This document shows, piece by piece, positions 2,046 through 53,768 of a stretch of DNA of 64,000 nucleotides (position 1 is its first letter; each line of letters opens with the position of its first letter). The translations under genes and the position numbers were made by a program. Origin of the DNA: a candidate division Hyd24-12 bacterium UBA5074 (GTDB taxonomy: Bacteria > Fermentibacterota > Fermentibacteria > Fermentibacterales > Fermentibacteraceae); assembly GCA_002414865.1 (NCBI GenBank), contig DIAQ01000095.1, positions 21,430-85,429 on the forward strand. The letters run 5' to 3'. The notes under the pieces are model-generated. The model ran no database searches. It saw only the letters and a list, made by a program, of their open reading frames with translations, and had not been told where the DNA came from.

Positions 2046-2104
2046 GGGGCCTCCCTGGATGCCAGCCGGAAGATAACAGAGCGGGAGGGCGTGGAGAACC
2101 CGCG

Positions 2105-2133: not shown

Positions 2134-2196
2134 ACCGCAGGCCGGCTGGCATCCGTCAAGGTGCCGGTTAATTCTGAACGGAGGGTTGCAGTACAG

Positions 2197-35340: not shown

Positions 35341-37613
35341 CAGCCTTCCTCCGTCCCGCGGGGCGTTTCGTCCCTCTTCCCGTAGACTTCGCGGCGCTTG
35401 CCGCCCTGGAAGGGCCCTATCACGCCCTCCTCCTGGAGCAGCTCGATCAGCCTGGCGGCCCTCGGGTAGCCCAGCCCGAGCTTCTTCTGGAGGAAGGTCA
35501 CCGAGGCCGTCTTCGAGTTGATGACGAGATCCCTCGCCGTGTCGAGCAGCTCATCCGCTTTTACATCGCCGGCCTGCGGAGTGTTCCCCGGATCCCCCTC
35601 CCGGATGGAGAACCCGTGCTCCGTCTTCAGCGCCTGATCCTTCCAGAATTCGACGATGCTCCTGGCCTCGGAGGTGGACACGTTGGAGCCGTGGATCCTT
35701 ATCGGCTCGGATGAAGTGGCCTGGAGGAACAGCATGTCACCTCTCCCGAGCAGCTTCTCCGCTCCGTTGGCATCGAGGATGGTCCTGGAGTCCGTCTTCG
35801 ACATGACGTTGAAGGCTATCCTGGAAGGGAAGTTGGCCTTTATCACGCCCGTGATGACATCGACGGAGGGCCTCTGGGTGGCGACGACGAGATGGATGCC
35901 AACGGCCCTGGCCTTCTGGGCAAGCCTGCAGATCGGCAGCTCCACCTCGTTGCCGGAGGTCTGCATCAGGTCGTACAGCTCGTCGATGAACAGGACGATG
36001 TACGGCATGGGAACCGCATCGGGCGGCGGGGCGGTGTTGAACTCGTCGATGGTCCTCGCCCTCGCCTTCTCCAGAGTCCTGTAGCGGTTGTCCATCTCTA
36101 CGACGAGGGATTCCAGGAGCTGCCTGGCCTTCTTCGGATCGACGATGACGGGGGCCCAGAGGTGGGGCACGTCCTCGTAGATTGCCAGCTCGACCCTCTT
36201 CGGATCGACCAGGGCCAGCCTCACCTGCTCGGGCTTCCTCGTCATCAGGAGAGTGCAGATCATGCTGTGGATGCTGACGCTCTTGCCCGAGCCGGTGGCC
36301 CCGGCCACGAGCAGGTGCGGAGCCTCGGTGAGGTCGGTCACGAACGGCTCGCCTTCGAGCTTCTTGCCGAGGGCCAGGGGAAGCTTCACGCCCGGTGGCA
36401 CGGCCTGGAGGATCTCACTGAGGAAGACGGGCTCGGGGTTGGAATTGGGCACCTCCACCCCCACCGCATCCCTGCCCGGGATGGGCGCCAGGATGCGTAT
36501 CCTCTTGGCCTTGAGCGCAAGGGCGAGGTCGTCCGAGAGGCCGAGGATGCTGTTCACGCGGACGCCCTGGCCCGGCTTCAGCTCGAACCGGGTCAGCACG
36601 GGGCCGGCCCTGTGTCCGGTCACCCTGCACGAGACGCCGAAGTCGGCGAGCTTCTTCTCCAGAAGGGCTGCCTTCTCGAGCAGCTCGGACTCGGGCACGC
36701 CCCTGGGAGCACCCCTCGAGGGCGCCTCGAGCATGTCGAGCTTCGGCAGGGTCGCCCTGGAGGTGAACGCCTGTACCGCAGGCAGGCCCGCAGACAGAGC
36801 GCCCTCCGGGGACCCGGGGGCACGCACAGGCTCCTCTGCGCGCTCCTTCAGGGGCTCCCTCGCCGGCGCCGCCGACCTGGCTGGAAACCTGTCCGCGGAG
36901 TCCGCCGGGGGCAGAACAGGAGCGCTCCCCGCAATCTCCGGGAGAAGGTCCCTGTCGCTGTCGGCGAGACCCTGGATGATGATGGGCGGGGTATCCTGGC
37001 GCTCAGGCCTGTCCCAGGCATGGCGCTCCATGAAAGGCGGCGGCGCAGGAGGGGCCGGGGTCTCCCCGTCCCTCCCGGGCCTGGCCCTGGGCTTCGGAGC
37101 GGCGCTCTTCGCCGCCCTTCCCAGGAGGAGCAGATCATCCGCCAGGTCCCAGCCTGTGAAGATGACGAGCGCCGTTATGAGGCATGCGAGCAGGATGAGA
37201 TAAGCCACCAGGGATCCGGCGGACTTCTCGAGGAGCTCGACCGTGCTGTGCGCGAGCAGGCCGCCCGGTCTGCCGGCGATGGCGGGGTTGAAGCGGCTGC
37301 CGACCATGTCCGTGAGGGCGGCCAGGAAGTAGCCGGTCACGCCTGTCCCGAGGATGGTCGTGAAGCCTCCCCGGAGCGCTGACGCGCTGAGGGTCCTCAC
37401 GGCGCACATCAGAAGCAGTGCCGGGAGGAGGAAGGACAGGAATCCGGCGCTTCCATAGAGGGCCTGCCTCACCTGGGCCCCCACCCTGCCCCAGGGGGGC
37501 ACGACGAGGAGGACGAGCAGGGAGATCCCTGTGAAGATGCAGGCGACCACGACTATGCTGCGCAGGCTGCTGCGTCGGCGCCTGGCCCTGGACCTGCTCC
37601 GCGCGCGTGCCAT
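35340..37613 (-). CDS. ftsK: DNA translocase FtsK/SpoIIIE.
   Basis: N-terminal TM helices, a Pro/Ala-rich linker, the motor domain [19 protein letters not shown] and a C-terminal gamma (winged-helix) domain. ATG at 37613 overlaps the HU-gene TGA stop (ATGA). Confidence 0.9.
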   Translation of the reverse strand: MARARSRSRARRRRSSLRSIVVVACIFTGISLLVLLVVPPWGRVGAQVRQALYGSAGFLSFLLPALLLMCAVRTLSASALRGGFTTILGTGVTGYFLAALTDMVGSRFNPAIAGRPGGLLAHSTVELLEKSAGSLVAYLILLACLITALVIFTGWDLADDLLLLGRAAKSAAPKPRARPGRDGETPAPPAPPPFMERHAWDRPERQDTPPIIIQGLADSDRDLLPEIAGSAPVLPPADSADRFPARSAAPAREPLKERAEEPVRAPGSPEGALSAGLPAVQAFTSRATLPKLDMLEAPSRGAPRGVPESELLEKAALLEKKLADFGVSCRVTGHRAGPVLTRFELKPGQGVRVNSILGLSDDLALALKAKRIRILAPIPGRDAVGVEVPNSNPEPVFLSEILQAVPPGVKLPLALGKKLEGEPFVTDLTEAPHLLVAGATGSGKSVSIHSMICTLLMTRKPEQVRLALVDPKRVELAIYEDVPHLWAPVIVDPKKARQLLESLVVEMDNRYRTLEKARARTIDEFNTAPPPDAVPMPYIVLFIDELYDLMQTSGNEVELPICRLAQKARAVGIHLVVATQRPSVDVITGVIKANFPSRIAFNVMSKTDSRTILDANGAEKLLGRGDMLFLQATSSEPIRIHGSNVSTSEARSIVEFWKDQALKTEHGFSIREGDPGNTPQAGDVKADELLDTARDLVINSKTASVTFLQKKLGLGYPRAARLIELLQEEGVIGPFQGGKRREVYGKRDETPRGTEEG

Positions 37614-38143
37614 CAGACGGTCCTCACGGAATCCCCGCGGCCGTCGGAGGGGGTCCGCGGATCGCAGAGGAGCGCGCCGTCCACCCAGAACCTGTAGGAC
37701 ACTATGGCTCCGGCCGGGAGGGGCACCTCGGCAACCCAGCTGCCGTCCGGGAGTCGCTGCATGGGATTGGCGGAGGAGTCCCAGCCGTTGAAGCTGCCGA
37801 CGACCGATACTGCCGACGCTCCGGGAGCGCCTGCGTAGACGAACGGCACGCGTGTCATCCGGGACAGGGCCGAGCTCACGGATTCCCTCAGCCTGTCATA
37901 TGGCCTGAAGGAGGGGCGGACCTTCGGGGGGATCTCGATGATGCCGTCGCCCCTGGGATCGCGGGCCCGCCGGGAGCCCGCAGACCGGGCCTCGAAGCAG
38001 CCGAAGCCCCGGAGGTAGACCGATCCTCCCGAGCAGAGGACCTCGGAGATCACCGCGAGGGCGCTCTCCACGACAGCCTGCGCCTCTCTCCTCGTCACTC
38101 CGGTCCTGATGGCGACCTCGCGCGCCAGCTCATCCCTGGTCAG
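37613..38143 (-). CDS. HU/IHF-family DNA-binding domain fused to a C-terminal CBM48/AMPK-beta glycogen-binding-like domain. A CTG start is proposed.
   Basis: ORF track starts at GTG 38098 (VTRREAQAVVESALAVISEVLCSGGSVYLRGFGCFEARSAGSRRARDPRGDGIIEIPPKVRPSF = HU body). In-frame upstream codons encode DLTRDELAREVAIRTG (HU helix 1) preceded by TAG, with CTG at 38143-38141 and GGAGGT 6 nt upstream. C-terminal VPFVYAGAPGASAVSVVGSFNGWD...WVAEVPLPAGAIVSYRFWVDGALLCDP matches the CBM48 pattern. Confidence 0.65.
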   Translation of the reverse strand: MTRDELAREVAIRTGVTRREAQAVVESALAVISEVLCSGGSVYLRGFGCFEARSAGSRRARDPRGDGIIEIPPKVRPSFRPYDRLRESVSSALSRMTRVPFVYAGAPGASAVSVVGSFNGWDSSANPMQRLPDGSWVAEVPLPAGAIVSYRFWVDGALLCDPRTPSDGRGDSVRTV

Positions 38144-38209: not shown

Positions 38210-39706
38210 TCAACTGCCGGCGACAGCCGCGGCTATGATGCCCAGGGCGCTGTCCCCCGGGCTCGATCCGGTCGTGTCCACGCGGCCGGGCAACCCTTCG
38301 TAATGTTCGCGCCGCTCCGCCAGAAGATCCAGGAGCGCACGGCGGTCGGAGGCGAGGGGTCTGCCTGCGGAAAGCCTCTCCAGCAGAGTGTCAGTCGATG
38401 CGGTGAGGGTCACCACGACAGCCTTCGAGAGCGCCAGCCCGAGGCTGTCCCCGTCCAGGAGGGTGCCGCCGCCCAGCGCCATCACTAGAGGGCCTCCCGC
38501 TTCCAGCGCCTCCGTGAGGCACTCCTTCTCCAGGGCTCTGAAGGCCGGCTCGCCCAGCTTCTCGAAGACTGAGGGGATCGGCATCCCCGCGCGCCGCTCG
38601 ACGGCCTCGTCCAGGTCGACGAAGGGCATCCCGAGTATCCTCGCGGCTTCAGCGCCCGCCGTCGTCTTCCCGCTGAACGGGGGGCCTGCGACGAGAATGG
38701 GCTTCGAGGAGGCCCTCTCCGAGAACTCCACGAGGCCTGCCGAGCGGATGACGGATCTGGCGTGCTCGAGGCTGACGAAGAACCTCCTGCTGTACAGCTC
38801 GTAGCTCTCGCGGACCGGCGGAGGGGTCATGTTGACCGTGATCACGTTGGCCCCTGCTTCGAAGCAGCCGAGCTGGCCTCCGGGTCTGAGTCTCTCGAAT
38901 GTGCTCGTGGCCGGGATGAGGGTGTTCCCGAGGAGGAGTCTCATGGCCGCCACGAAGCGGAGTCCGAGGTCCACGCTGCCGGGTGGCAGCGCCTCGAAAG
39001 GCGTGCCCCTCGCGGGCAGGAACACCGACACGCTGGTCATCTCCGCCCCCAGCTCCTCGAGGAGGCGCAGGTCCGCGACGAGGGTGGAGGGCGTCTGGCC
39101 CGGCAGCCCCAGCAGAGGGCCGGAACCGATCTCGTAGCCGTGCTCCCTCAGAGTCTTCAGCTCGGATATCCTGTCTTCGAGGCTCAGCCCGGGCTTCACC
39201 CTCGCGAAGAGCTCCGGATCGGCGCTCTCGTGCTTGAGGATGAATTTCGACGCTCCGGCATCCCTCCAGAGGTCGAGGTCCGAGGGATCGTGCACCCCGA
39301 CGCAGAGGAGGACGGCCATGTCCATCGAGGAGATCTCCCGCACGAGATCCGCCAGCCACGCCGCCGGGTAGTCCGGCGTCTCCGCCGACTGCAGGAAGAA
39401 GGTTCTTATGCCGTTGCCGCGGGCTGTGCGGGCTGCGGCGAGAATCTGCTCCCCCGTGAGCAGGAACCTCTCGACCTGCCGATTGTCCTTCCTCATGCCG
39501 CAGTAGTGGCAGTTGCACCGGCAGTTGTTGGAGAACTCGATCACGGCCCTGAGGTAGGCCCTCCGTCCGAACGACCCGGCCCGGACGCGGCGGGCGGCCT
39601 CGAAGACGCTCACGGTTTCCTCGTCGCTGCATTCGAGGATCGCGAGCAGGTCCCCGTCCGAGAAACCAGCTCCCAGCCTTTCATCGAGCCACTTCGCGTC
39701 TATCAT
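38210..39706 (-). CDS. Fusion protein: a HydE/BioB-like radical SAM domain joined to a C-terminal shikimate kinase (AroK) domain.
   Basis: N-terminal IEFSNNCRCNCHYCGMRKDN (CxxxCxxC, HydE/BioB-like) followed by a TIM-barrel radical SAM body. C-terminal ILVAGPPFSGKTTAGAEAARILGMPFVDLDEAVERRAGMPIPSVFEKLGEPAFRALE...ALGGGTLLD is shikimate kinase. ATGA overlap with the aroE stop. Confidence 0.8.
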   Translation of the reverse strand: MIDAKWLDERLGAGFSDGDLLAILECSDEETVSVFEAARRVRAGSFGRRAYLRAVIEFSNNCRCNCHYCGMRKDNRQVERFLLTGEQILAAARTARGNGIRTFFLQSAETPDYPAAWLADLVREISSMDMAVLLCVGVHDPSDLDLWRDAGASKFILKHESADPELFARVKPGLSLEDRISELKTLREHGYEIGSGPLLGLPGQTPSTLVADLRLLEELGAEMTSVSVFLPARGTPFEALPPGSVDLGLRFVAAMRLLLGNTLIPATSTFERLRPGGQLGCFEAGANVITVNMTPPPVRESYELYSRRFFVSLEHARSVIRSAGLVEFSERASSKPILVAGPPFSGKTTAGAEAARILGMPFVDLDEAVERRAGMPIPSVFEKLGEPAFRALEKECLTEALEAGGPLVMALGGGTLLDGDSLGLALSKAVVVTLTASTDTLLERLSAGRPLASDRRALLDLLAERREHYEGLPGRVDTTGSSPGDSALGIIAAAVAGS

Positions 39707-40491: not shown

Positions 40492-41716
40492 GGCGCCGGT
40501 CCCTCGCGGCCAGGAAGGCCCTGTGCAGCCACCTGGCCGCGCCGCGGGGCTCGAGGAAGACCGGGGCGAGGAAATCGGCTCCCGCGGGAGCGCGGCCGTC
40601 GCGCACCATGTCCTCGGCGATTCCGGAATGTGCGTAGACCCTTATCGTGCCTATGCTCACGAATGTGCTCCCCCATCCCAGGAGGAGCCTCGCCCTCAGC
40701 ATGAACAGGAGCTTGCCGACAAGGGCGGCGAAGCCCTCGCCCGGGTTGCCGCTGAAGAAGTTCACTCCCACGGCCAGCCCCGCCCGCCTCGCGGCGGCCA
40801 CCGAGGGATAGAGGTCGGAAGGTCTGCCGTTCTTGCCCAGCATCCTCAAACCCCTCGCGGTTATGGCGTCGGGCGACAGGTCCACCTTCACCGCCCCTGC
40901 AGCCTTCATCGCCGCCAGGTCGGCAGCCTCCACTCCCGTATCCAGCCAGGCGCCCCACTCCATGTGCGCCTCGAGCCGTGCGACGGCCCTGACCAGGGAC
41001 CTGAAATAGTCCCTGGGAGCGTCGAAGACCGAGTCCACGAACTGGAACCTTTCTACGCCCAGCCTGGCCAGGTTCTCCACATCCGCCGCGACGGCCTCCA
41101 CGGGGCGGCAGCGGAATGACCGGCCTCCCAGGAAGGAGTAGGTGCAGTACCGGCAGGAGAACGAGCACCCTCTCCTGCTCTGGACTCCCACGCCGAAGCC
41201 CCTCGCATAAGGCGCCAGGTCGAAGAGGGAGTAGGCGGGCGGGCGGATGGCCGTGAGATCCGGTCTCGGCGGAATGGTCAGCCGGGGCGGAGTGGAACCC
41301 GATCCCAGCGTCTCCAGGATGAACGGCAGCGCCTCCTCTCCCTCGCCGGCCACGCCGTAGTCTATCCTGGGGAAGGCCTTCATCAGCGTTTCCGGATAGA
41401 TCGAGAACCCGGGGCCTCCGACGACGACCGCTCCCCTGTAGCCGGAGAGGGCGGAGAGCGCCTCCCCGAAGGGGGCGAGATACGAATGGGTCCTCGGCCA
41501 CGAACTGTCGTCGATGTTCCTGAGGGAGATCGCGGTGACCTCGGGGGCGAACGATCCGACAGCGTCGGCGAGCTCCCTCCGCGGGTCGTCGCAGATACCC
41601 AGGTCGAGCACCCTGATCTCGTGCCCCTGCAGCTGCCCTGCGAGGCAGGCGAGCCCCAGGGGGAAGATGGGTTCCTCCCGCCTCCCGGTGGGTGATTGAA
41701 CGAGCAGCAGTTTCAT
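40481..41716 (-). CDS. B12-binding-domain radical SAM protein.
   Basis: N-terminal Rossmann-like B12-binding region (MKLLLVQSP...LGLACLAG) followed by radical SAM motif GCSFSCRYCTYS. The overlapping ORF 40305..41750 in another frame is R-rich and rejected. Confidence 0.8.
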   Translation of the reverse strand: MKLLLVQSPTGRREEPIFPLGLACLAGQLQGHEIRVLDLGICDDPRRELADAVGSFAPEVTAISLRNIDDSSWPRTHSYLAPFGEALSALSGYRGAVVVGGPGFSIYPETLMKAFPRIDYGVAGEGEEALPFILETLGSGSTPPRLTIPPRPDLTAIRPPAYSLFDLAPYARGFGVGVQSRRGCSFSCRYCTYSFLGGRSFRCRPVEAVAADVENLARLGVERFQFVDSVFDAPRDYFRSLVRAVARLEAHMEWGAWLDTGVEAADLAAMKAAGAVKVDLSPDAITARGLRMLGKNGRPSDLYPSVAAARRAGLAVGVNFFSGNPGEGFAALVGKLLFMLRARLLLGWGSTFVSIGTIRVYAHSGIAEDMVRDGRAPAGADFLAPVFLEPRGAARWLHRAFLAARDRRHGE

Positions 41717-41725
41717 CAGGACTCC

Positions 41726-41760
41726 GCAGTCTTAGCGTTTCTCCGATCATTGACTATAAT
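41726..41760 (+). promoter_or_regulatory. Putative promoter with a perfect TATAAT -10 for the CAP-domain lipoprotein gene (near-leaderless).
   Basis: TATAAT at 41755-41760, only 6 nt before the ATG at 41767. It sits in the divergent region shared with the B12 radical SAM gene start (41716). No good -35 element. Confidence 0.3.
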
Positions 41761-41766
41761 GATTTC

Positions 41767-42756
41767 ATGCTGTTTCCGCTGATCGTCGCGCTCTGCTCGC
41801 TGGCTGCCGGGGGCTGCGGGGGCGGCTCCCGGCTCCTGCCGTGGAGACAGCCATCCCTCGACGGCCTGGCCGCAGGGATATTGTCGGCGCGGACGATCCC
41901 CGAGTCGCCAGGGCTCCTCGTGATGGCCGCTTCGTGCGGATGGCCCGGCTCCATCGAGCTCGTCTCAACCGGCTCCCTGGAGGAACTCGAGGCACAGCTC
42001 GAAGCCTCTCCCGAGGGAACCTGCTGGGGCTCCTCCGGCGACGACTCCCTGGTCGTCCTGGTCACAGCCCCCTTCCCGGATGTGGTGCCCGAGGGGCTCG
42101 ACCTGGTGATCCCCCGCCACGGGTCGGCATCCTTCTCCCTCCTCCCTGCCGGTGGCTGCGACAGGGTTCTGGCCTCGTACCCTTCCGGCGAGGTGGTGGA
42201 ACTCGTCCCGGACTCTGCGGGCGTCCTCCACTTCCAGGCGAGGGAGCAGGGCCTCTCCTGGATCGAGGCGGTCAGAGACGGGCCCGAAGGCCCGGAGGTC
42301 GTCCTGCTGCTCCCGGTCTGCGCCGGGATCAGCGCATCCAGGGCTCTGGAGACAGGGCTCGCCCCCGGGATGGACACGCTCGAGGACATCCTCTCGGACA
42401 TCGGCGAGAGAAGGGGCCGAAGGCATCTGCAGCCTCTCGTGCGCACGGACCCGCTGGACAGTCTGGCCCTTGCAAGGGCCCGTGAGGTGGCCGAGTCCGG
42501 AGTGGTCAGCCATGCCGGTCTGCTGAGGCGGGAGGCTCCCGTCGACGGCCTCACGAGGGCGGAGAACATCGCCCGTGGAGGGAGCCTTGCCGAGGCCCAC
42601 GCGATGATCATGGCAAGCCCCATCCACCTGGCGGCATGCCTCGATCCTGAATACGGACAGGTGGGCATCGGCTCGGCCGTCCAGATAGGGCGTTACGGCT
42701 GGCAGATAGTCGTCGTGGAAATCTTCCTGGGAGCGGCGCATGATCGGTGTCCGTAG
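41767..42756 (+). CDS. Lipoprotein with a C-terminal CAP/SCP (PR-1/YkwD-like) domain.
   Basis: Lipobox MLFPLIVALCSLAAGGCGGGS (the ORF track starts at GTG 41692). C-terminal GLTRAENIARGGSLAEAHAMIMASPIHLAACLDPEYGQVGIGSAVQIGRYGWQIVVVEIF resembles the CAP domain. Confidence 0.65.
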   Translation: MLFPLIVALCSLAAGGCGGGSRLLPWRQPSLDGLAAGILSARTIPESPGLLVMAASCGWPGSIELVSTGSLEELEAQLEASPEGTCWGSSGDDSLVVLVTAPFPDVVPEGLDLVIPRHGSASFSLLPAGGCDRVLASYPSGEVVELVPDSAGVLHFQAREQGLSWIEAVRDGPEGPEVVLLLPVCAGISASRALETGLAPGMDTLEDILSDIGERRGRRHLQPLVRTDPLDSLALARAREVAESGVVSHAGLLRREAPVDGLTRAENIARGGSLAEAHAMIMASPIHLAACLDPEYGQVGIGSAVQIGRYGWQIVVVEIFLGAAHDRCP

Positions 42757-44371
42757 CGTGGCCCACGCCTCCGCGGCCGCTCTCCTGACGGTGGCGGGCG
42801 TCCTGCTGGTGGCTTCCTGCAAGAGCCCGGGCGCCGCCGCCGTCCTCTGCGCGTCGGCGCTGCTGGCCGGGGAGCTCCCCCTCAGGAATGACAGGGCCGT
42901 GCGGCTGACCCTCGCACCGGTGCCACTCGCGGCACTCGCCGGCGTCGCAGGGCCCCTGGAGGGCATGGCCGCAGGCATGCTCTTCCTGTCGGCTGGAGTT
43001 CTGCTCAGGGGCTTTCCAGGGAACACCGGATCCGGCTCTGCCAGAGCCGTCCTGTCCGTGATCGTGCCCTGCCTCCTCGCGGCTTCCCAGTCGGCGATGC
43101 ATCTCGGGGCCGGGCCCGGTCTCTCGGCTGCGGTCGCGTTCGTCCTCCTGGTGGCCGGATCTGGGATGCTGGACGCCATCCGGGGCGGGCGCCGCGCATG
43201 GGCCGGGTCGCTCCTGTGGATCCCGGCGGGGGTGCTGATGGCTCCTCTGCTCTACCTGACATGGCTGGGCGTCTCGCAGGCCGGCACGACAGGGGCCGCG
43301 CTGCTCTCCCTGCCGCTGTTCGCCTTCGCGGGCCTGTCCTCGTGGAGGCGGCGCAGCCTCGACCTCTACGAGAGGAAGACCTCCGAGCTCGCGGCCCAGA
43401 ACGCTCTCTCGGCAGAGCTCGCCTCCTCGAAATCCACGACCGAGTTCCTGGACACGGCAGGCAGGTACCTCTCGCCCGGCTCCAGATCGTTCGTGGTTCT
43501 CCTCACGAGACAGGCGGGGGGCGGGAGCGGCTGGGTGGGCTGGTCCAGTGCGGAGCAGAGGGCCTCGAACGCCTTCCCCGCCCAGGGCGGACCGCCGGGC
43601 TGGAACGAGATCAGGACCGGAGTCAGGCTCCAGGGGAGGTCCGGAGCGCTGATCGGACTTTCCCCGTCCAGGGACATGGCCCTGTTCGTGGACGGAGGCG
43701 CAGCCACCCGGCTGGAGGCCATGGAGCCCGACATAAGGGGTAACTTCGTCTCGCTCGTGAACCACGCATGGCAGGCGGTGGGACACTCCCTCACCATAGA
43801 CAGCGCCTTCATCGCGGCCGCGATGATACTCGCCCGGCTGGCCGATTCCAAGGACGACTACACGCATGGCCACTCGATCCGGGTCGCACGCCTCAGCTAC
43901 ATGCTGGGCGCTCGGATAGGCCTGTCCGTCCAGAAGCTCAAGACCCTCCGGGTGGGCGCGCTCCTGCACGACCTCGGGAAGGTCGCGGTCCCGGCGGAGA
44001 TACTGACCAAGCGCGGCCTTCTGACCAGGGAGGAGAGGACCGTCATCGAACGGCACCCCGTCGAGGGCGCCGAGATACTCGGCTCGCTCAGGGGGTATGA
44101 CGAGGTGAGGGAGATCGTCGGCAGCCACCACGAGAGGCTCGATGGCAAGGGATATCCGTCGGGGCTCTCCGGAAGGGGCATCCCGTTCCTGGCTCGGGTG
44201 GTCGCCGTTGCAGACACCTTCGATGCGATCACCTCCAGCAGGTCCTATCGCGCCGACGCAGACAGGCAGACGGCTCTGGAGGCGATCCGCGCAGGCAGCG
44301 GCACTCAGTTCGACTCGCGGGTCGTGGCCGCTCTCGAGAAGATGCTGGAGGACGGCGATGAAACCATCTGA
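42740..44371 (+). CDS. Membrane-bound HD-GYP domain protein (putative c-di-GMP phosphodiesterase).
   Basis: About 6 N-terminal TM helices. HD-GYP motifs HGHSIRVA, LHDLGKV, HHERLDGKGYPSGL. Confidence 0.85.
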   Translation: MIGVRSVAHASAAALLTVAGVLLVASCKSPGAAAVLCASALLAGELPLRNDRAVRLTLAPVPLAALAGVAGPLEGMAAGMLFLSAGVLLRGFPGNTGSGSARAVLSVIVPCLLAASQSAMHLGAGPGLSAAVAFVLLVAGSGMLDAIRGGRRAWAGSLLWIPAGVLMAPLLYLTWLGVSQAGTTGAALLSLPLFAFAGLSSWRRRSLDLYERKTSELAAQNALSAELASSKSTTEFLDTAGRYLSPGSRSFVVLLTRQAGGGSGWVGWSSAEQRASNAFPAQGGPPGWNEIRTGVRLQGRSGALIGLSPSRDMALFVDGGAATRLEAMEPDIRGNFVSLVNHAWQAVGHSLTIDSAFIAAAMILARLADSKDDYTHGHSIRVARLSYMLGARIGLSVQKLKTLRVGALLHDLGKVAVPAEILTKRGLLTREERTVIERHPVEGAEILGSLRGYDEVREIVGSHHERLDGKGYPSGLSGRGIPFLARVVAVADTFDAITSSRSYRADADRQTALEAIRAGSGTQFDSRVVAALEKMLEDGDETI

Positions 44372-45929
44372 ACCCGCCCGCACAGGCCCCGCGGCCTTCC
44401 AGCTCCTCGTCTGGATCCTCGCGGCGGTCTCCGTGCCGGACTCCCCGGCCCCCTCCTCCTCCATCGAGTCCCTGACACTGATGATCGCCACCTGGGTCGG
44501 CGTCCTGGGGGCCACCGCCTTCAGCTACCTCTCCTCCAGCGGCATCTCTGTGTCCCTCGTCACCTGCTTCCAGTGCCTGCTGGTGATGACGGGCTTCGAC
44601 AGGGCTTCCGAGGCCGCGTTCCTGATCGCCTGCTTCCTCGGGACGATGTCGTTCTCGGGGAGGATAGGGCTGGGGGCGCGTGACGGCGCCGGCCTCTCCC
44701 TGAGAGCGGCGCTCACCCAGTGGGCTGCTCTGAGGATCGCAGGATTCGTCTATGCGGTAACGATTCCGGCAGGCCTCTCCGGCACGCTTCCCGGAGCTGC
44801 AGCCTGCTCTGTCTTCGCAATCGTGCTGCTCCAGGCTTCAGCGCTGGTCCTTCGCTCGATCGGAGGGCGCGGGAGGCTGCTGAGGACGGAGTTCAGCTTC
44901 GCGAGGCTGATGCACGGAGTCGCTCTGCCGGTCTTCTTCATGCCTTTCCTTCTGCCGGCGGTGACCGGGGCGGTCGGACCGGGCGCGGCGCGCGGAGACG
45001 TCTCCCTCCTGCTCCCTGCCGGCGTGGCGTCGATGATCACCGTGCAGGTCGCCATGGCGCTCAGCCTGGAGAGGTCCAAATGGTCTCAGGGCAGGGCGCT
45101 CTCGCTGGAGAAGGCCATGGCCGCGCTCTCCCGCAGGCTGGTCTCCTCGAAGAACCCTGCGGCGGCGCTCCAGAGCCTGGCCGTGGAGCTGCAGGAGGCC
45201 ATCAGGTCGAGGGCCATCAGGGTCACCTGGGGCAACCTCTCGATGGCCCTGCCGTCGGGCTCCCCCCTGCCGCGGGGCAAGCCCCTGCGCCGGACGGGAA
45301 GGGCGGGCCTGCAGGCGGAGATATGGGCCGACCCGGCCACAGTGCTCGATCCTGCGCGGCTCGACGCCTTCGTCCTCCAGACGGAGGCCGCCCTTCAGAG
45401 CATCGAGCTGGGGAGCAGCATCAGCAGGGAGGCGTGGAACTGCATGGAGGCGATGGTGCAGTCCCTCGACCGCTCCGACCACCGGCTCGCAGGCCACAGC
45501 AAGCGCGTGGCCAGGCTGGCGACCGAGCTGGGCCGCCGGCTGAACCTCCAGCCGGGACTGCTGGACAGCCTCCGCATGTCCTCGCTCCTGCACCACGTGG
45601 CGCAGTTCGTCCTCACCTCACGCCCCTACGAGGACCTGCCGGATGCGGACAGCTCGCTCTCGCGCTTCGCGCTTCCCGGAGAGGCCATCGAGGGTCTCAC
45701 GAGGATGAGGGAGAACTTCGACGGTACCGGGCTGCCGGATGGCCTGGCGGGCAACATCATCCCGATTCAGGCCAGGATACTCTCGGTGTCCGACGAGTTC
45801 ATCACGGGCGTGGAGAGGATGGGCGGGGATGCGGCGATGACCGCCGTCTCGCAGCGTTCGGGCAGCCTGTACGACCCCGCCATAGTCCAGGTCCTCTCCG
45901 CCACCCTGGAGGACGGCTTCGAGGCCTGA
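44358..45929 (+). CDS. Membrane-bound HD-GYP-like protein with degenerate catalytic motifs (possibly non-catalytic).
   Basis: ATG at 44358 overlaps the 3' end of the upstream gene. About 8 TM helices. AGHSKRVARLATELG is retained, but HD becomes LHHVAQF and HHExxDGxGYP becomes RENFDGTGLPDG. Confidence 0.7.
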   Translation: MKPSEPARTGPAAFQLLVWILAAVSVPDSPAPSSSIESLTLMIATWVGVLGATAFSYLSSSGISVSLVTCFQCLLVMTGFDRASEAAFLIACFLGTMSFSGRIGLGARDGAGLSLRAALTQWAALRIAGFVYAVTIPAGLSGTLPGAAACSVFAIVLLQASALVLRSIGGRGRLLRTEFSFARLMHGVALPVFFMPFLLPAVTGAVGPGAARGDVSLLLPAGVASMITVQVAMALSLERSKWSQGRALSLEKAMAALSRRLVSSKNPAAALQSLAVELQEAIRSRAIRVTWGNLSMALPSGSPLPRGKPLRRTGRAGLQAEIWADPATVLDPARLDAFVLQTEAALQSIELGSSISREAWNCMEAMVQSLDRSDHRLAGHSKRVARLATELGRRLNLQPGLLDSLRMSSLLHHVAQFVLTSRPYEDLPDADSSLSRFALPGEAIEGLTRMRENFDGTGLPDGLAGNIIPIQARILSVSDEFITGVERMGGDAAMTAVSQRSGSLYDPAIVQVLSATLEDGFEA

Positions 45930-45949
45930 TCCCCTTTCCGCCGCACCCG

Positions 45950-46534
45950 TCAGCGCAGGCCCAGATTGGGCGGTGAGACGCTCCCCTCCAGGCTGAAGCT
46001 GGCTTCTCCGGCCTCCGCCGTGATCGAGTAGCGTATCGTCCGGATCCTGTCCCTCCCGGCCTCGTCCGCCAGCACGACGCCATCCAGCGCGCGGCCGGAA
46101 TCGTCCAGGTACTCGAAGGAGATCGAAGTCGAGGCAGGCGCCTCGAACAGGACGGTCCCCGCTGCATCCTCCACGGTGATTCCGCCGCCGGGCGGGCTCG
46201 AGATCGAGATCCGGTCCTCCGGCCCGGAGTGACCCGGTTCCTCCGTGTCGTCGAGGAAGGAGACCTGCGAGGGGCCCGCGCAGGCGAATGGATGCCTCCC
46301 GGCTCCCGGGCGCGACGCGGCGTAGCCGGCGCGGCCCAGGGCTGCGGAGATCCTCTCCGCGGCCAGGCCCGCCTCGGCCGAGGCCCTCCCCGCGTCAGCA
46401 GCCCTCCGGGCCGCCTCCCTGCCGTTGAGATAGACGGCATAGAGGGCGCCCAGCAGGACGACGAGGACTGCGATCACCACGACAAGCTCGACGAGTGTGA
46501 ACCCCTGCCGGCGCGGCGGGATGCCGTCCGGCAT
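45950..46534 (-). CDS. Type IV pilin-like protein (pseudopilin); last gene of the operon.
   Basis: Class III signal MPDGIPPRRQG|FTLVELVVVIAVLVVLLGALYAV, with Phe at +1 and Glu at +5. Confidence 0.8.
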   Translation of the reverse strand: MPDGIPPRRQGFTLVELVVVIAVLVVLLGALYAVYLNGREAARRAADAGRASAEAGLAAERISAALGRAGYAASRPGAGRHPFACAGPSQVSFLDDTEEPGHSGPEDRISISSPPGGGITVEDAAGTVLFEAPASTSISFEYLDDSGRALDGVVLADEAGRDRIRTIRYSITAEAGEASFSLEGSVSPPNLGLR

Positions 46535-46553
46535 GCACCGGGGTGCGCGGGCG

Positions 46554-47978
46554 CTAGAAGATGTTGTCGTCTATCCTGCCGTCCCCGAAGTCGGGATCGA
46601 GCTGCCAGGAGATCATCTTCCAGGCTTCCAGGGTGGGGAATCCGGGAGGGTGGACGGAGGCGTATCCCTCGTCCCAGGCTATGGTCAGCTCGTAGCCGGA
46701 GAATCCCGTCTCGAGCGAGCCGAACCTCTCTTCCAGGAGCCCTCCGAGGACATTCAGGGAGAACCTCCCCCCTCCGGCCGAGGGATCTTCGGCCTCGAGG
46801 GAGCCGGACGGACAGGCGAGGTAGGCGCCTATCGAGAGGTGCCTGTCGGTCGTGATGTCCCAGGGGCGGGGCCAGTCGGGCGCGCCGGAAGCGTCCGGGT
46901 CGGCAGCCACGATGATGTCGCCGAGCGACACCAGCGCGAGCGGCGAGCCGGAGTAGGCGGATTGCGAGCTGATGGGCCCCATGACGACCAGGGGGCCGCC
47001 GACCACGATGGTCAGGGGCTGATCGACCGCGCCGAGCGACTTCATGTAGACGGGGGCGAACCCGCTCTGGATGTACACGATGCTCCTGCCGCCCAGCCCC
47101 AGCGTGTCCACCTGCATCCCGGGACCGGCGGAGTAGAGGAGGCGGCGCCCGTCCAGGAGGACCCTCCTGGCCCCCCGTATCAGCGACCCCTGCCGTGAGG
47201 CCTCCGCGGAGAGGGTCTCGAAGCAGGCGGTCAGCCTGGAGAAGCTTACGCTGTCGGCGGCTCCGTCCCAGTACGGCCTCCCCTGGAGCATCTGCGGATA
47301 GGGGCGGACCCAGGTTCTGCTGCCGGGGGGGTGGGGCAGGTCGCTCCTCCCGAAGTCATCGAAGAGGAAGCCGCCGCGGGCGGTTGTCGAGACCGATGCC
47401 ACCCACGGGTCGTCTGCGGAGTCCGGCGACTCGCTGGAGAAGCTGACAGGGCCGTTGGAGTGCACCGGGCCGGCCATGATGCAGCCGTCGTCCAGGAAGC
47501 CCGCAGGCACGCCTGCGTCGACCAGCAGCGAGTACCTGGAAGGATAGTCCGGCAACGCCCTCACCGAGACATCCCTCATGAGCCCGTTCGAGAGCCCCCT
47601 CGCCCTGATCTCCACCGAGCCGATCCGGCAAGGGAGGTAGTTCTGGTCCGAGGGATCGATCAGGACCCAGACGCTCTCTCCGGACGGGAGGGATATCCAC
47701 TGGGCGCTGTCTCCCGGGAGGGCGAAGGGCTCCCTGCCCCCCGGGACCGAGTCGGCCAGCGACAATGTGTGGAGGGCGAGGCTCACTCCGGCCTCGGCTG
47801 CGAACTGCGCCCTGGTCCTGTCGAGCTTGAATGCGAAGCTGGCCACGTTGCTCTGGAAGATCACGTAGACGGCGCCCGCCAGGATGAAGAGCACGAGCCC
47901 GAAGATCGCGGCCAGGGCGAGCACGGCGCCTGTCGCGCCGCGCCGCCCTGCCTCAAGGGGTCTAGAACCAGTGCTCAT
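46554..47978 (-). CDS. PilX/GspK-like large minor pilin (paralog 1).
   Basis: N-terminal RRG|ATGAVLALAAIFGLVLFILAGAVY, then QFAAEAGVSLAL (PilX_N-like). 474 aa. C-terminus DPDFGDGRIDDNIF is similar to the paralog. Confidence 0.7.
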   Translation of the reverse strand: MSTGSRPLEAGRRGATGAVLALAAIFGLVLFILAGAVYVIFQSNVASFAFKLDRTRAQFAAEAGVSLALHTLSLADSVPGGREPFALPGDSAQWISLPSGESVWVLIDPSDQNYLPCRIGSVEIRARGLSNGLMRDVSVRALPDYPSRYSLLVDAGVPAGFLDDGCIMAGPVHSNGPVSFSSESPDSADDPWVASVSTTARGGFLFDDFGRSDLPHPPGSRTWVRPYPQMLQGRPYWDGAADSVSFSRLTACFETLSAEASRQGSLIRGARRVLLDGRRLLYSAGPGMQVDTLGLGGRSIVYIQSGFAPVYMKSLGAVDQPLTIVVGGPLVVMGPISSQSAYSGSPLALVSLGDIIVAADPDASGAPDWPRPWDITTDRHLSIGAYLACPSGSLEAEDPSAGGGRFSLNVLGGLLEERFGSLETGFSGYELTIAWDEGYASVHPPGFPTLEAWKMISWQLDPDFGDGRIDDNIF

Positions 47979-49470
47979 CCACCGAGTCGAGGTCGAGGTC
48001 GGGCTTCTCCGCCCAGTACACCACGTCCCACCGGCCCGTCTGCGGGAAGAACGGCGGGTGCATGGAGAGCAGCCTGGGGTCGTAGTAGATCACGGTGTCG
48101 TAACCGGAGCTCGGGGTGGTGGTGTACCCCTCCGTGTTCACGATGTAACCGCCCATGACCATGAAGTCCACGGGGCCGGGCGGGACGTTCCAGTTCTCGG
48201 CGTTGAACGCGCCGTTGAGGTCCATCACCACCATGTCGTACTCGATGTCCGCATTCGTGACGATGCGCCAGACCGGGTCGGTCCAGTCGGTTCCCCCCAC
48301 GCTCTCCGGATCCACCGCGATGGTGAAGTTCCCGTAGACGATGATTATCCCCAGCATGGTGAAGTTGCCGGCGTCCTGCAGGTCGCGGTTCTGGTACTGC
48401 AGGGTGCCCGACACGAAGAGGCTCCCGTTGACTCCTATCGTCAGCGGCATGCTGAGTCCGTCCTGGCACCAGGGCGCGGTGCCGGTGACGTACGGCGGCA
48501 TGCTCTTCAGATAGACCCTCTGGGCGGCGCCGTTGTCGATCCAGACCACGGGATTTACCAGGTCGCCCAGATAGAAGCGCTGGACCGCGGCCGCGTTGCT
48601 CTCCTTCACGAGCAGCGTGTCGTTCCTCAGTATCATCCTGGTGCGGTCGTCGAGAGTGCCAGGACCGAAGTAGAGCCCTCCGGAGATGGCCGCGTTGCGG
48701 GCATCCCCCCAGTCGACCTCGCCGGGGCCGTATGCGATCGGGTCCACGTTCAGCTCGAAGTAGGGCGCACCCATGGACATCCTCTCCGGGGGCTGGATGG
48801 AGAGGTTGCCGTAGACCGGAGAGGTGCGGTACGGGGGAGCGGTGCCTCCGAAGCCGGTGCTGTACCAGTAGCCCGGTGACGCCAGGCTGAAGCGGTAGAA
48901 CCAGATGTCATTGGTGGTCGAAGCGTCGCTGCTGAAGAGGCAGACTCCTCCGTTCGCGAAGAAGGGTCCGTCGAACCTGTAGCCGTCGCCGTAGTAGCCG
49001 TTGGTGGGCGGCACGTTGAGGAAGGTGGCGAACCTGGCGAAGTTCTCGGGGACGACCACCGTCTCCATTCCGTAGTCGAAGGTTCCCTGCTGGGACTCCA
49101 CCCTTCCGAGGGCCCTCAGGCCGTAGGCGTCGCCCGCCCAGACCTCCGGGTTGTTGTTGCTGGGATCGACCCAGACCGTCACTTCGCCCAGGTCGTCCCC
49201 GGGCAGGTCCTCCCACCCTGTCGCGGGAGGCTCGGGCAGGAACTGCACCGGGAGCGTGTCGTAGGGTACCGAGGCGCCGCCCATGATCATGTCCACGGCC
49301 AGGTTGGCCCCGGCCTCGGCCGTGTACCTGGCCTGTATCCTGTCACGGTCCCAGGTGTAGCTCTTCATGTTGGCGTCGAACAGGGTGTACACGGCGGCCG
49401 CGAGGATGGAGAGGACGAGGGTGGCTATCACCACCATCGCGAGAGCCGCTCCTCTTCTGTCTGGCTTCAT
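47962..49470 (-). CDS. PilX/GspK-like large minor pilin (paralog 2).
   Basis: ATG at 49470 with GGAGGGGGA Shine-Dalgarno. N-terminal RRG|AALAMVVIATLVLSILAAAVY plus RYTAEAGANLAV. 502 aa. Confidence 0.7.
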   Translation of the reverse strand: MKPDRRGAALAMVVIATLVLSILAAAVYTLFDANMKSYTWDRDRIQARYTAEAGANLAVDMIMGGASVPYDTLPVQFLPEPPATGWEDLPGDDLGEVTVWVDPSNNNPEVWAGDAYGLRALGRVESQQGTFDYGMETVVVPENFARFATFLNVPPTNGYYGDGYRFDGPFFANGGVCLFSSDASTTNDIWFYRFSLASPGYWYSTGFGGTAPPYRTSPVYGNLSIQPPERMSMGAPYFELNVDPIAYGPGEVDWGDARNAAISGGLYFGPGTLDDRTRMILRNDTLLVKESNAAAVQRFYLGDLVNPVVWIDNGAAQRVYLKSMPPYVTGTAPWCQDGLSMPLTIGVNGSLFVSGTLQYQNRDLQDAGNFTMLGIIIVYGNFTIAVDPESVGGTDWTDPVWRIVTNADIEYDMVVMDLNGAFNAENWNVPPGPVDFMVMGGYIVNTEGYTTTPSSGYDTVIYYDPRLLSMHPPFFPQTGRWDVVYWAEKPDLDLDSVDEHWF

Positions 49471-49482
49471 CTTCTCCCCCTC

Positions 49483-52400
49483 CTAGTTGGGCACGGCGAA
49501 GAACTGGATGTTGTCGAGGTTCCAGCCGCCGCGCTCCATGAACGGGCCTGAGTACTGCAGGAACCTGATGAAGTAATAGGAGTAGCCTGCTCCCCAGGCC
49601 GCCGTGAACTCCGGCGTGAGATCGATCCACTCGTCATCCCAGTCGAGCTGGTTCTCGCCGCTGTACTGCCTCACCAGCTTCCAGGCGCTCGATACGGAAT
49701 CGGGGGGGGTGGTCGAGTTCGAGAACCCTATCGAGATGTAGGCGTCGTCGGTGGCCGAGAGCCTGACGCAGCGGTAGTACTCCACCGATACACTGTCGTA
49801 GAGGCTCTGGCTTGGCATCGTGTAGGCGGGCGAGACCAGCCATGCCCACTGGTTGGAGGGGTAGTACCCATCGACAGTCAGGTCGGTGCCCGCGACCGTC
49901 AGGCCGTTCTCGGGAGTGAGAGCCGGATCGACGCTGAGGACCAGAGGCGCCGCTATCTCCCAGTCGTCATCTCTGCCCCCGTGGGTCCACCAGCCGCCGG
50001 ACCCCGACGTGCCCAGCTCTGAGGCCAGATAGATCACCTCGAAGTCGTTGTAGAGATTGTAGTTGTTGAGAGGCACCGAGTCGTCGGGGGTGGTCCCGCT
50101 TATCTCGCCGAGGGCCCCTGTCGTGGACTGCACCCTGATGGCCGGCCTCCTGGCGTGGAGGGCCAGCACGGTCGGATCGGCGGTATCGCTGCCGGCCTGG
50201 CGGCACCTGACTGCGGAAGGCGCATCCTCGGTCATCCACGAGGTGTTGGCCGAAGTCCAGCCGGCGTCGTGCTGCTCCACCTTGATGCAGAGGTTCATCC
50301 CCGGCGGCAGCAGGAAGGTGTCGTCGAGGTTGAGGGTCTTCCAGCCCGTGGAGTTTACACCCAGGGTGCCCTCGTCCACGACCTGGGTCATCGTCGCCTT
50401 GTCGATCTCGCCGGCGCCCGCAAAGGTCGAGTCGGCGATCGCAGCCATGTAGACGTCATAGGTGAAGTTCCAGGGCGAAGGCACCGATGCCGCCTCGAAG
50501 TCGAGCGCGCTGATCTCGTAGCCGGTGGCCTGGCCGAACACGCGGAAGTTGTCGATGTGCCAGCCCACGTCCGCGGTGGTGGTGTTCGAGCCGAACACGA
50601 AGCGGAACCTGACGGTGTGCCCGGCGTACGAGTCGAGGTTCACGGTGTCCGTCCGCCAGGTCTGCAACCCGCAGAAGATGCGCATGCCCGCTCCGCCCGG
50701 GAAGCCCGCGAGGGAGTTGGCGCTGTAGACCAGGCCGGAGGCGTCGGTCAGCGTGACCCAGCCCCCTCCATCCACCGAGAGCTGGACGAATCCGCCGTCG
50801 TACTGGTTCTGCGTGTCCACATAGTGCGTGAACTGCATCTTGGGCGAGACCACCCAGGCGGGGATGGAGACGGTCGGCGTGGTCAGATAGCAGTAGGTGT
50901 TGTTCGCGTACTGCGTGCCGGAGGCCTGCTGCACCGTCCACGAGTATCCGTAGAGGGCGTCCACCTCCTTGGTGTTCCAGGTGTCGAGGTGCCCGGCGCT
51001 CATCGGCCCGTGGGACCAGCCCGAGAGGCCGAGGCCCGGCGTGAGCCTGCTTATCCTGAGGTCGTCCCACTGCATGCCGCCCGATGGGATCGGATTCCCG
51101 CCGAACTGGCTCAGGGACACGCGGTAGTTGGAGCCGAACGGGTAGGACGAGGCGAAGGCCGCATCATCGAGGTCGACGAAGACGGTCTCCCATCCGGCCG
51201 GGCCTGCGCCGGCGCCTATTCGCGTGTAGGTCGTGTCGGCCGTGACTACGATGTTGTCCAAGGAGATGCCGTCGTTGTTGTCCAGCGAGACGGCGGTGTT
51301 GTTGTTGTTCGAGCCGAACAGCACGTAGAGGTTCGCGGGCATGGTGACCGGGGTGAACCGGTAGCTGCGGTTGAACCAGCTGCTGTTGTTGTAGGAGGAA
51401 GGCGTGAGGTTCACGGGATCGGTCGGCGCGGCGGCGATGCCCACGCTGCTCCAGCCCACGAAGTCGCCCGTCGCTCCCGTGTTGTCGCCGTCGTTGTGGT
51501 CGTGGAACCTGTAGCTGACGGTCAGGGGCGTGTTGTTGGGAAGCCCGCCCGTGCTGAAGTAGACGGCCATCCGGTTGGCGACCCCCGCGCCGTTGGAGAC
51601 CCTGTCCAGGGTGATGAAATTGCCGTCGCCGAGCCATCCCGCGGGCGAATGCACTCTCCACTGGCCGTTGACAGGGATCTGCGTGGTGATGCCCGGAGGC
51701 AGGACCCCGGCCGTGGGGAACCCGGTGTGGAACAGAGTGTCGATGTCGGTGAAGAAAACGCCGTCCATCGCGTCCGGGGCTCCCTCGTAGCTGCGGCACT
51801 TCACGGAGAGGAGCAGCTCGTCGGTCATGTAGCTGAAGGGGCTCAGGTCGACCGTGACGGTGGCGATGTTCCTCGTGCCCGTCCCCGCCGTCGGGCGGTG
51901 CATCTGCAGGACGTCATCGGTCGTGTTGATGCCGCAGGACCCCATACCCAGGGCCGCGAAGGACCAGCTCAGGAGCGGGGCGTCGGTGAACGGCTCCCAG
52001 AACAGCACGGTGGTGTCAGTCACCGCCGTCGGGTTCACGTTCTCCTCCCACAGGTTGATCTCCTGCGAGCTGACCCCGGGGCCCTCGAAGTCCTCGAGCG
52101 TAGTCAGCTCGTCCCCGTGGTCGCCGGCCGTGGTGCCGCAGCTCCAGGCGATCGCATTGTAGAACAGGGGCCAGCCGCCCGACTCCGTGTACTCGCTTGC
52201 GTCGTAGGGGCTGAAGTGGATCCTGCGGAGCGCCTCGTCGTCCTCGTCGCGCACGATGATGGCGCAGTTGGCCACCGCCGTGCCTCCGATGCCGAGGTAC
52301 TCGGGGTTGGAGAGGGCGGGATCGGTGCCAAGGAGCATCGACTGCCTGCCGCTGGAGATCGGCGAATATGCGTAGATGGTGTCCGGCGTGATGTTCTTGA

Positions 52401-53367: not shown

Positions 53368-53380
53368 GTCCACCACCCGC

Positions 53381-53758: not shown

Positions 53759-53768
53759 ATCCCTTCTC

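Follow-up and report, generated by a model that had tools for sequence, protein, structure and literature searches.

The subject of this analysis is a pair of adjacent genes on the plus strand of a 64-kb stretch of DNA (64,000 nucleotides, G+C content about 67%; referred to below as the window) from contig DIAQ01000095.1 of the candidate division Hyd24-12 bacterium UBA5074, a member of the Fermentibacteria. Both genes encode membrane proteins that end in a domain of the HD-GYP type, known from phosphodiesterases that act on cyclic di-GMP (c-di-GMP); gene 1 (42740-44371) specifies 543 residues and gene 2 (44358-45929) 523 residues, and they are preceded on the same strand by a gene for a predicted lipoprotein of 329 residues (41767-42756). 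Gene 1 has the look of a working enzyme, gene 2 is a paralogue with a degenerate active site, and the two stand side by side in every locus compared. The original prediction for this DNA placed the two open reading frames (ORFs) on the plus strand at 42740-44371 and 44142-45929, and both are confirmed there, the start of gene 2 being corrected to 44358 for reasons given below.

Fermentibacteria are abundant fermenters in anaerobic digesters. Their genome paper describes them as diderm, without flagella but with type IV pilus genes, and makes no mention of c-di-GMP (PMC5030696); a literature search on Fermentibacteria and c-di-GMP found nothing. Proteins identical to the gene 2 product occur on contig DJCY01000143.1 (GCA_002430795.1) and on several metagenome contigs, and its closest named relatives belong to Candidatus Fermentibacteria. 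The comparisons described here draw on 16 other distinct loci from Fermentibacteria and Aegiribacteria for synteny (given L numbers where they need to be told apart), nine of which have gene calls; on a table of residue conservation covering both genes in 14 species; and on an active-site alignment of both HD-GYP domains, together with 14 relatives of gene 2, to PmGH, PA4781, V-cGAP3 and DvhD. PmGH numbering is used for comparing active-site positions, and the roles of the residues are taken from the PmGH paper (PMC4159591).

Gene 1 matches the Pfam family HD_5 (PF13487; gathering threshold 27.2 bits) with an E-value of 2e-39 and a score of 135.5 bits, and among proteins of known structure it matches V-cGAP3 (2e-37), PA4781 (7e-26) and PmGH (4e-25). 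Its first 215 residues (42740-43384) form a polytopic domain with about 6-7 transmembrane helices, within the 6-8 estimated for the two proteins, judging from hydropathy and an AlphaFold model, and this domain belongs to no Pfam or NCBIfam family; residues 230-346 (43427-43777) form a GAF-like alpha/beta domain, modelled as a six-stranded sheet between helices; and residues 351-537 (43790-44350) form the HD-GYP domain, delimited by its motifs, by the alignment and by the 14-species table. The model has a mean predicted local distance difference test score (pLDDT) of 83.2. When submitted to Foldseek its best match is PmGH, aligned over 361-367 columns, while the HD-GYP part superimposes on that of the bimetallic enzyme PA4781 with a TM score of 0.78 and a root-mean-square deviation of 2.1-2.2 Å, at 34% sequence identity.

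The motifs expected of an active HD-GYP domain, namely GHS, LLHDLGK, ERHP, SHHERLDGKGYP and VADTFD, can all be found in gene 1, the key residues being H378, H410-D411, K414, H439, H463-H464-E465, G471-Y472-P473, D492, R501 and R504. Seven of the eight metal ligands of PmGH thus have counterparts (H189, H221, D222, H250, H276, H277 and D305), as do the catalytic and substrate-binding residues D183, K225, the Tyr of the GYP motif, R314 and K317. The remaining ligand, E185, is replaced by Tyr, as in the binuclear class, and since PA4781 likewise lacks this Glu, gene 1 can be placed in that class with PA4781. With E185 excepted, therefore, the set of residues needed for a competent HD-GYP phosphodiesterase is complete. 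These catalytic residues are invariant in all 14 species, save that the position equivalent to K317 is occupied by Arg or His; the only other exceptions are single ones at non-ligand positions, one Asp in place of the Tyr and one Asn in place of D468. Mean pairwise identity rises from 23% in the membrane domain through 34% in the GAF-like domain to 68% in the HD-GYP domain. Gene 1 is accordingly predicted, from its sequence, to encode an active HD-GYP phosphodiesterase of the binuclear type.

For gene 2 the extent of the protein must first be established. The first ATG of the ORF, at 44142, was considered as a start and rejected, as it would make the gene overlap gene 1 by 230 nucleotides (nt) and no orthologous sequence exists in the extra stretch; the true start is the ATG at 44358, the public gene calls and all orthologues agreeing on a product of 523 residues. 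This ATG lies 5 nt behind a Shine-Dalgarno sequence, GGAGGA (44347-44352), and overlaps the end of gene 1, whose TGA is at 44369-44371, by 14 nt, so that the whole junction (44347-44371) has the form expected for translational coupling.

The layout of the protein repeats that of gene 1. Residues 1-243 (44358-45086) form a polytopic membrane domain of about eight helices with short loops, again according to hydropathy and AlphaFold and again with no Pfam or NCBIfam family, within which several polar intramembrane residues are conserved (P27, W46, P69-C70, E85, R102, R126 and Q230). These are followed by a GAF-like domain (residues 245-354, 45090-45419), modelled as four short strands between helices, and by the degenerate HD-GYP domain (residues 357-518, 45426-45911; alignment and 14-species table), which still scores well above the HD_5 cutoff (E = 5e-15, 56.1 bits). 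Although the mean pLDDT of the model is lower, at 75.8, the two models have the same architecture: an N-terminal bundle of about 7-8 helices, in which the loops are short and helix 2 is followed by a small hairpin, then a long helix leading into a small alpha/beta domain, and finally the HD-GYP helical domain. The top Foldseek matches of both are PmGH, DvhD and PA4781, with PmGH first, and the alignment to PmGH extends across the alpha/beta and HD-GYP parts of both proteins (348-367 columns, the lower figure being that for gene 2, the model of which also matches GAF and phytochrome structures). Neither protein matches Pfam GAF, but in both models a small alpha/beta domain occupies the GAF position.

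It is in the active site that the two proteins part company. The original prediction had pointed to two strings in gene 2 that replace the canonical motifs; both are present verbatim, in the forms LLHHVAQF and MRENFDGTGLPDG, and alignment to PmGH and PA4781 bears out the loss of ligands that they suggested, just as it bears out the retention in gene 1 of H..H, HD and HHExxDGxGYP. Gene 2 has H380, then H412-H413 where HD has become HH (45591-45596), Q416 in place of the Lys, M450-R451-E452 where the HH pair has become MR (MRENFDGTGLPDG, 45705-45743), L459 in place of the Tyr, and D479. Expressed in PmGH numbering the substitutions are E185 to R, D222 to H, K225 to Q, H276 to M, H277 to R and Y285 to L. 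In addition there are two deletions, one of 15 residues that removes the L7/8 loop, including the third metal-binding His (H250), and one of 6 residues that takes away the part of L10/11 bearing the substrate ligands R314 and K317; in PmGH these two loops are the “claws” that grip c-di-GMP (PMC4159591). Rather than all the metal ligands proving to be conserved, which was the outcome that would have told against degeneracy, only three of the eight are kept (H189, H221 and D305), along with the equivalent of D183. The equivalents of K225, H250, H276, H277 and Y285 are lost from gene 2 in all 14 species, and the residue set of a competent phosphodiesterase is plainly absent. We infer that gene 2 encodes a catalytically inactive protein, or pseudo-phosphodiesterase, one that would be incapable of building the two-metal centre.

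A degenerate active site might of course simply reflect a gene in decay, but the pattern of conservation argues otherwise. An initial homologue search found 16 full-length relatives (34-100% identical to gene 2), every one of which shares its degenerate motifs, while an exhaustive profile search of 1.84 billion representative proteins gave just 14 full-length matches, the rest matching the HD-GYP domain alone; the eight full-length matches that were fetched are all degenerate. Mean pairwise identity across the 14 species is 30% in the membrane domain (better than the 23% of gene 1), 40% in the GAF-like domain and 51-58% in the degenerate HD-GYP domain, which is thus the best conserved of the three, and the most conserved element of all is a near-invariant loop, DGxGxPxGLxGxxIPxxxRIL. 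Because the degenerate domain maintains this level of identity and this loop, gene 2 is, on the sequence comparisons, held under purifying selection and not decaying. What is not conserved is a metal site. In distant orthologues Tyr, Phe or Arg takes the place of the first His (GYS, GFS or GRS), the HH pair is replaced by HL, HA, HM or RN, and Ser, Ile or Ala stands where the last Asp was, the Aegiribacteria orthologues keeping only one His (GYS / HL / SVAS), so that no metal site is common to the whole family.

That the two genes are related to one another, as originally proposed, is clear. They are 31% identical over the C-terminal 217 residues (E = 5e-19), and profiles built from the orthologues of each align with 99.65% probability over 450 columns in hhalign, the confidence being high in the GAF-like and HD-GYP domains and low in the membrane part; the order of helices and hairpin agrees between the two models. 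On this evidence genes 1 and 2 are tandem paralogues, duplicates of a single gene with membrane, GAF-like and HD-GYP domains. The notion that they might be one gene split by a frameshift can be dismissed, as each ORF has the full set of three domains and in all the relatives they are distinct genes.

The pairing of the genes is equally clear. In all 16 of the other distinct loci gene 1 is followed immediately by gene 2, and it is without exception the first of the two that is intact and the second that is degenerate; wherever genes have been called (nine loci), the stop of gene 1 overlaps the start of gene 2, by 4-17 nt. The pair is kept where the lipoprotein gene is absent (L020) and where the pilin-like genes described below are absent or have moved (L018, L021, L022-24). 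Since the genes are paired everywhere, even without the lipoprotein, the active/dead HD-GYP pair is the constant core of the operon. Locus L020 (GCA_029934845.1, 6544-9482) comes from a distant relative of low G+C content that retains the pair, with rSAM/shikimate/FtsK synteny upstream but no lipoprotein gene; its dead copy also lacks one residue of the G-x-P loop (GTG-PSG).

The gene upstream of the pair encodes a protein with a lipobox (MLFPLIVALCSLAAGGC; signal LAAGGC) and a C-terminal domain that is probably of the CAP/SCP (YkwD-like) type. The match to Pfam CAP (PF00188) falls below the cutoff (E = 0.0045; 18.3 bits against 21.1), but a profile of four orthologous lipoproteins matches the CAP domain of Borrelia BB0689 (PDB 4d53) with E = 2.2e-5, and the Joint Genome Institute (JGI) annotation is also YkwD; a homologue search for the protein gave two matches only. 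Its end overlaps the start of gene 1 by 17 nt, so that all three genes overlap from stop to start. The lipoprotein gene is found ahead of gene 1 at 15 of the 16 other loci (L020 being the exception), and the arrangement of lipoprotein, gene 1 and gene 2, in that order, is repeated at another ten loci from Fermentibacteria species, in the metagenome locus L021 and in three Aegiribacteria loci; the three-gene operon appears to be confined to these two groups. A minus-strand ORF at 41754-42668 was also considered as the upstream neighbour and set aside, as it has no family match and the plus-strand ORF is the one called publicly and conserved in relatives. A scan of 41500-46700 for promoters and terminators gave one antisense promoter match at chance level and no terminator.

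Downstream, and convergent with gene 2, lies the seven-gene operon of type IV pilin-like proteins (45950-55546, minus strand; 476, 120, 125, 1297, 502, 474 and 194 residues) that had been noticed in the original prediction. Three of its products match N_methyl (PF07963; those of 125, 1297 and 194 residues) and one matches PilX_N (that of 502 residues), and prepilin N-termini of the form G-F/M/Y-T/S-L-x-E are found in four of them (GFTLVE, GMSLVE, GYSLAE). Only 20 nt (45930-45949) separate the stop codons. Given the convergent orientation the pilin-like and HD-GYP genes are on separate transcripts; there is no terminator-like hairpin in the 20-nt gap, so that the convergent transcripts would probably overlap, and gaps of 8-18 nt are found in L012 and L015. 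The 1297-residue protein (49483-53376, minus strand) has the prepilin N-terminus GMSLVE and the N_methyl match, and its counterpart in GCA_002430795.1 (L001) has been called as a gene of 386 residues plus one of 946 residues on the other strand, while other assemblies have 1294 residues, which suggests that this region is variable or hard to assemble.

The prediction had gone further, suggesting that c-di-GMP controls pilus biogenesis here, and this part does not stand up well. When neighbourhoods were compared across the 16 other loci, as had been proposed, the pair proved constant and the position of the pilin-like operon did not. Of ten loci from Fermentibacteria species nine show the same adjacency, but synteny extends equally to rSAM/shikimate, HU-CBM48, FtsK, LolA, DprA and Obg genes, housekeeping genes among them, so that it reflects general collinearity. 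In L018 the three-gene unit is kept while only the first gene of the pilin-like operon, together with DprA, remains downstream; L021 has one small pilin gene only; and the three loci from Aegiribacteria have their pilin-like genes on the other side, past the divergent rSAM/shikimate genes, with gene 2 facing a TPR gene. That they remain within a few kilobases in spite of rearrangement is a weak hint of a connection. A scan of roughly 45 proteins from the window turned up no PilZ domain, and a search of the window for c-di-GMP riboswitches gave nothing above threshold. The GGDEF gene that had been cited in support is real (1083-2360, minus strand; PF00990, E = 1e-32; motif GGEEI rather than GGEEF), but it is 40 kb from the pair and indicates only that the organism makes c-di-GMP. 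As things stand, then, the link between the HD-GYP pair and pili is one of proximity only.

Some further observations on these and other neighbours may be recorded. The long GGDEF ORF probably starts internally, at about residue 106 (MHQEK...), to give some 320 residues, as had been assumed in the original prediction. A PilT-like T2SSE ATPase of 391 residues (28798-29973, minus strand; PF00437, E = 1.5e-44) is encoded amid housekeeping genes 13 kb from the operon. DprA (55707-56780), which processes DNA in natural transformation, and Obg (56693-57715) are encoded directly upstream of the pilin-like operon, also on the minus strand, so that the pilus to which the pilin-like genes belong could be one for DNA uptake and not for motility. 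On the other side of the HD-GYP operon its constant divergent neighbours are a radical SAM (rSAM)-shikimate kinase gene, shikimate dehydrogenase and a B12-binding radical SAM gene; the first of these is here a single ORF of 498 residues (38210-39706, minus strand), in which an rSAM domain of the BATS type is fused to shikimate kinase, the two being split in other Fermentibacteria, at times on opposite strands (L007, L008, L009). Close by is a protein of 161 residues (37613-38098, minus strand) in which an HU-type DNA-binding domain (PF00216) is fused to a glycogen/starch-binding module (CBM48/AMPK1_CBM), a fusion common to all the related loci examined. The sole Rfam match in the window is a bacterial class A RNase P RNA (63644-64000, minus strand, 228 bits), clipped by the window end, and the 64 kb contain no tRNA genes.

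What, then, might the dead member of such a pair be for? The reading that we favour, somewhat to the better side of even, is that gene 2 is a tandem-duplicate pseudoenzyme partnered with gene 1 in a sensory or regulatory role, and this agrees with one half of the original suggestion, that it might be a regulator or a c-di-GMP receptor. Under this proposal gene 1 would hydrolyse c-di-GMP, and possibly also 3'3'-cGAMP, while gene 2, made in step with it by translational coupling, would pair with it to give an asymmetric heterodimer with a single active site, joined through the helix that connects the sensory and catalytic parts. Signals received through the better-conserved membrane and GAF-like domains of gene 2, perhaps together with the periplasmic lipoprotein, would then set the activity of gene 1; the direction of this regulation, from gene 2 to gene 1, is presumed, as are the signal itself and any downstream target such as pili. 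The grounds for preferring a partner are that the two proteins are full-length duplicates, that they are translationally coupled, that they are never found apart in the sample, that HD-GYP proteins are known to dimerise (PmGH and DvhD do so via a stalk helix; PMC4159591, PMC13090378) and that dead HD-GYP proteins with regulatory roles have precedents in HnoD, ECA3548 and RpfG (bioRxiv 10.1101/2021.11.05.467447).

There are also points that weigh against it. The inactivity of gene 2 is a prediction from sequence, and copies from the Fermentibacter clade, the present one included, retain H380, H412, H413 and D479, which occupy the positions of a classical single-metal HD site, so that a degree of metal binding or of residual chemistry may survive here. 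The complex between the two proteins is itself something that we infer: their membrane domains can barely be aligned and offer no evident interface for a heterodimer within the membrane, and both the coupling and the co-occurrence would also fit with proteins acting in series and not as one complex.

The other half of the original suggestion was that gene 2 might be a receptor, and in its fullest form this would make it a c-di-GMP (or pGpG or cGAMP) receptor of the DvhD/LapD type, signalling inside-out to the lipoprotein and thence to some surface structure such as a pilus. There is a direct precedent in DvhD, a membrane protein whose degenerate HD-GYP domain (HD to SQ, HH to MN) binds c-di-GMP at about 99 nM, free of metal, and signals inside-out (PMC13090378), and DvhD is among the best solved-structure matches of gene 2 (by sequence, with E = 7e-8, and in Foldseek); moreover a periplasmic lipoprotein is co-encoded, and a pilin-like operon close by, in most lineages. 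Gene 2 resembles DvhD in having lost metal ligands, but it does not share the contacts by which DvhD binds its ligand. These are Y523, L577, K582, Y621, M646, R650, Y652 and E668 (PMC13090378), and gene 2 has kept none of the eight: Y523 corresponds to R376, L577 and K582 fall in the 15-residue deletion and M646, R650 and Y652 in the 6-residue deletion (making five in all), E668 becomes Ser or Ala, and the position of Y621 varies among the orthologues (L/R/S/Q/K/A). The substrate ligands R314 and K317 of PmGH have been deleted as well, the model of gene 2 shows no periplasmic domain but only short loops, and in L020 the pair persists without the lipoprotein. Canonical binding of c-di-GMP by gene 2 is, on this comparison, unlikely, although a remodelled pocket may bind a nucleotide, and the receptor reading as a whole must be regarded as improbable. 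More doubtful still is an extended version in which the lipoprotein and the HD-GYP pair together make up a new type of c-di-GMP module spanning the membrane: the dead member would read the nucleotide pool, or the pGpG made by its partner, through such a remodelled pocket and would signal inside-out to the lipoprotein, which would act on the giant pilin-like surface proteins encoded close by; were it true, one would have a circuit like those of LapD and DvhD assembled from unrelated parts in a candidate phylum that lacks flagella.

About as improbable as the simple receptor is the idea that gene 2 acts as a scaffold, its conserved GYP-type loop recruiting other proteins, for instance GGDEF cyclases or PilZ-pilus motor complexes, so as to control pili apart from gene 1. 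The region of this loop is indeed the best conserved part of the gene 2 family, though the Tyr is lost, but it is equally conserved in gene 1, where its role is structural. The GYP motif of RpfG binds GGDEF proteins that control pilus motility (PMC4159591), Fermentibacteria have type IV pilus genes in the absence of flagella (PMC5030696), and the window contains both a GGDEF protein and a PilT-like ATPase; against this must be set the lack of any PilZ domain among the window proteins scanned, the fact that the pilin genes have no fixed position relative to the pair and the strict and translationally coupled pairing with gene 1, which a scaffold acting independently would leave unexplained.

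Finally, it is very improbable that gene 2 has, in the Fermentibacter clade, a different catalytic role or a metal- or gas-sensing one based on a retained single-metal site (H380, H412, H413, D479), for although these residues do occupy the H189, H221, D222 and D305 positions of the classical H...HD...D set, with H412 and H413 unchanged in the 12 closest loci and H380 and D479 replaced only in L018 (by Tyr and Ala), and although mononuclear HD enzymes are known as phosphomonoesterases (PMC4159591), the catalytic Lys and the substrate loops have gone, and distant orthologues in the same gene order replace the very residues concerned, so that the site cannot be needed for the function of the family and was rejected as such.

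Returning to the regulatory partner, the interest of the system lies in its being a clean natural example of an active and a dead HD-GYP protein maintained as an overlapping gene pair across all the loci examined. Dead GGDEF, EAL and HD-GYP domains are a recurrent feature of c-di-GMP signalling, but to our knowledge few dead HD-GYP proteins have a defined partner. Degenerate HD-GYP proteins, and enzymes in which dead and active HD-GYP modules are fused, are already known; literature searches, including one on HD-GYP heterodimers and paralogue pairs, found no description of a two-gene HD-GYP phosphodiesterase regulated by a pseudoenzyme, nor of a conserved two-gene membrane HD-GYP pair with both claws deleted and a CAP lipoprotein. 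If the heterodimer is real it would be a phosphodiesterase of just this two-gene, pseudoenzyme-regulated kind, and would offer a route to understanding how HD-GYP phosphodiesterases, which as a class are poorly studied, are gated by membrane signals; if gene 2 is no more than a lineage-specific regulator, the result is a useful correction to annotation and nothing further. The work also provides an initial view of c-di-GMP signalling among Fermentibacteria.

Comparison with known systems helps to define what is unusual here. Gene 1 has the fold and the catalytic residues of PA4781 and PmGH, with PmGH alignable to its GAF-like part as well as to its HD-GYP domain, and it shares with PA4781 the absence of the Glu that would build a third metal site. 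It differs from both in the polytopic membrane domain at its N-terminus, for which Pfam and NCBIfam have no match, and in always being followed by a dead paralogue. Gene 2 resembles DvhD of Desulfovibrio vulgaris (PDB 9rbz and 9rc0) in that both are anchored in the membrane, both have a sensor followed by a degenerate HD-GYP domain, and both have lost the Asp of HD and the HH pair (MR in gene 2, MN in DvhD). However, DvhD keeps both gripping loops, the Lys region of the HDxGK type, the Tyr of GYP and an R-x-Y-R motif, contacts for c-di-GMP that gene 2 has all lost, and where DvhD is partnered with a protease and places a dCache domain in the periplasm, gene 2 has a polytopic domain poor in loops and an active paralogue as constant neighbour.

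HnoD (Shewanella), ECA3548 (Pectobacterium) and RpfG share with gene 2 alterations in both the HD and HHE motifs, and they regulate through protein-protein contacts, as is proposed here; HnoD, for instance, inhibits its partner phosphodiesterase (bioRxiv 10.1101/2021.11.05.467447). These, however, are soluble proteins linked to REC or PilZ domains, their EAL or GGDEF partners are encoded elsewhere, and for none of them has a conserved gene pair of active and dead HD-GYP members been described.

A further parallel is provided by V-cGAP3 and the other HD-[HD-GYP] enzymes of Vibrio (PDB 5z7c), which likewise combine a degenerate HD-GYP-like module with an active one. V-cGAP3 is the top sequence match of both genes, gene 2 also aligning to its degenerate N-terminal module, and the dead module of V-cGAP3 has a regulatory role. 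V-cGAP3 is a single soluble polypeptide in which the dead module precedes the active one, whereas here there are two genes in different frames, each with its own start codon, encoding two membrane proteins of which the active one comes first and each of which has membrane and GAF-like domains of its own. The pair described here can thus be seen as a membrane-bound, two-gene counterpart of the intramolecular dead-plus-active pair of V-cGAP3.

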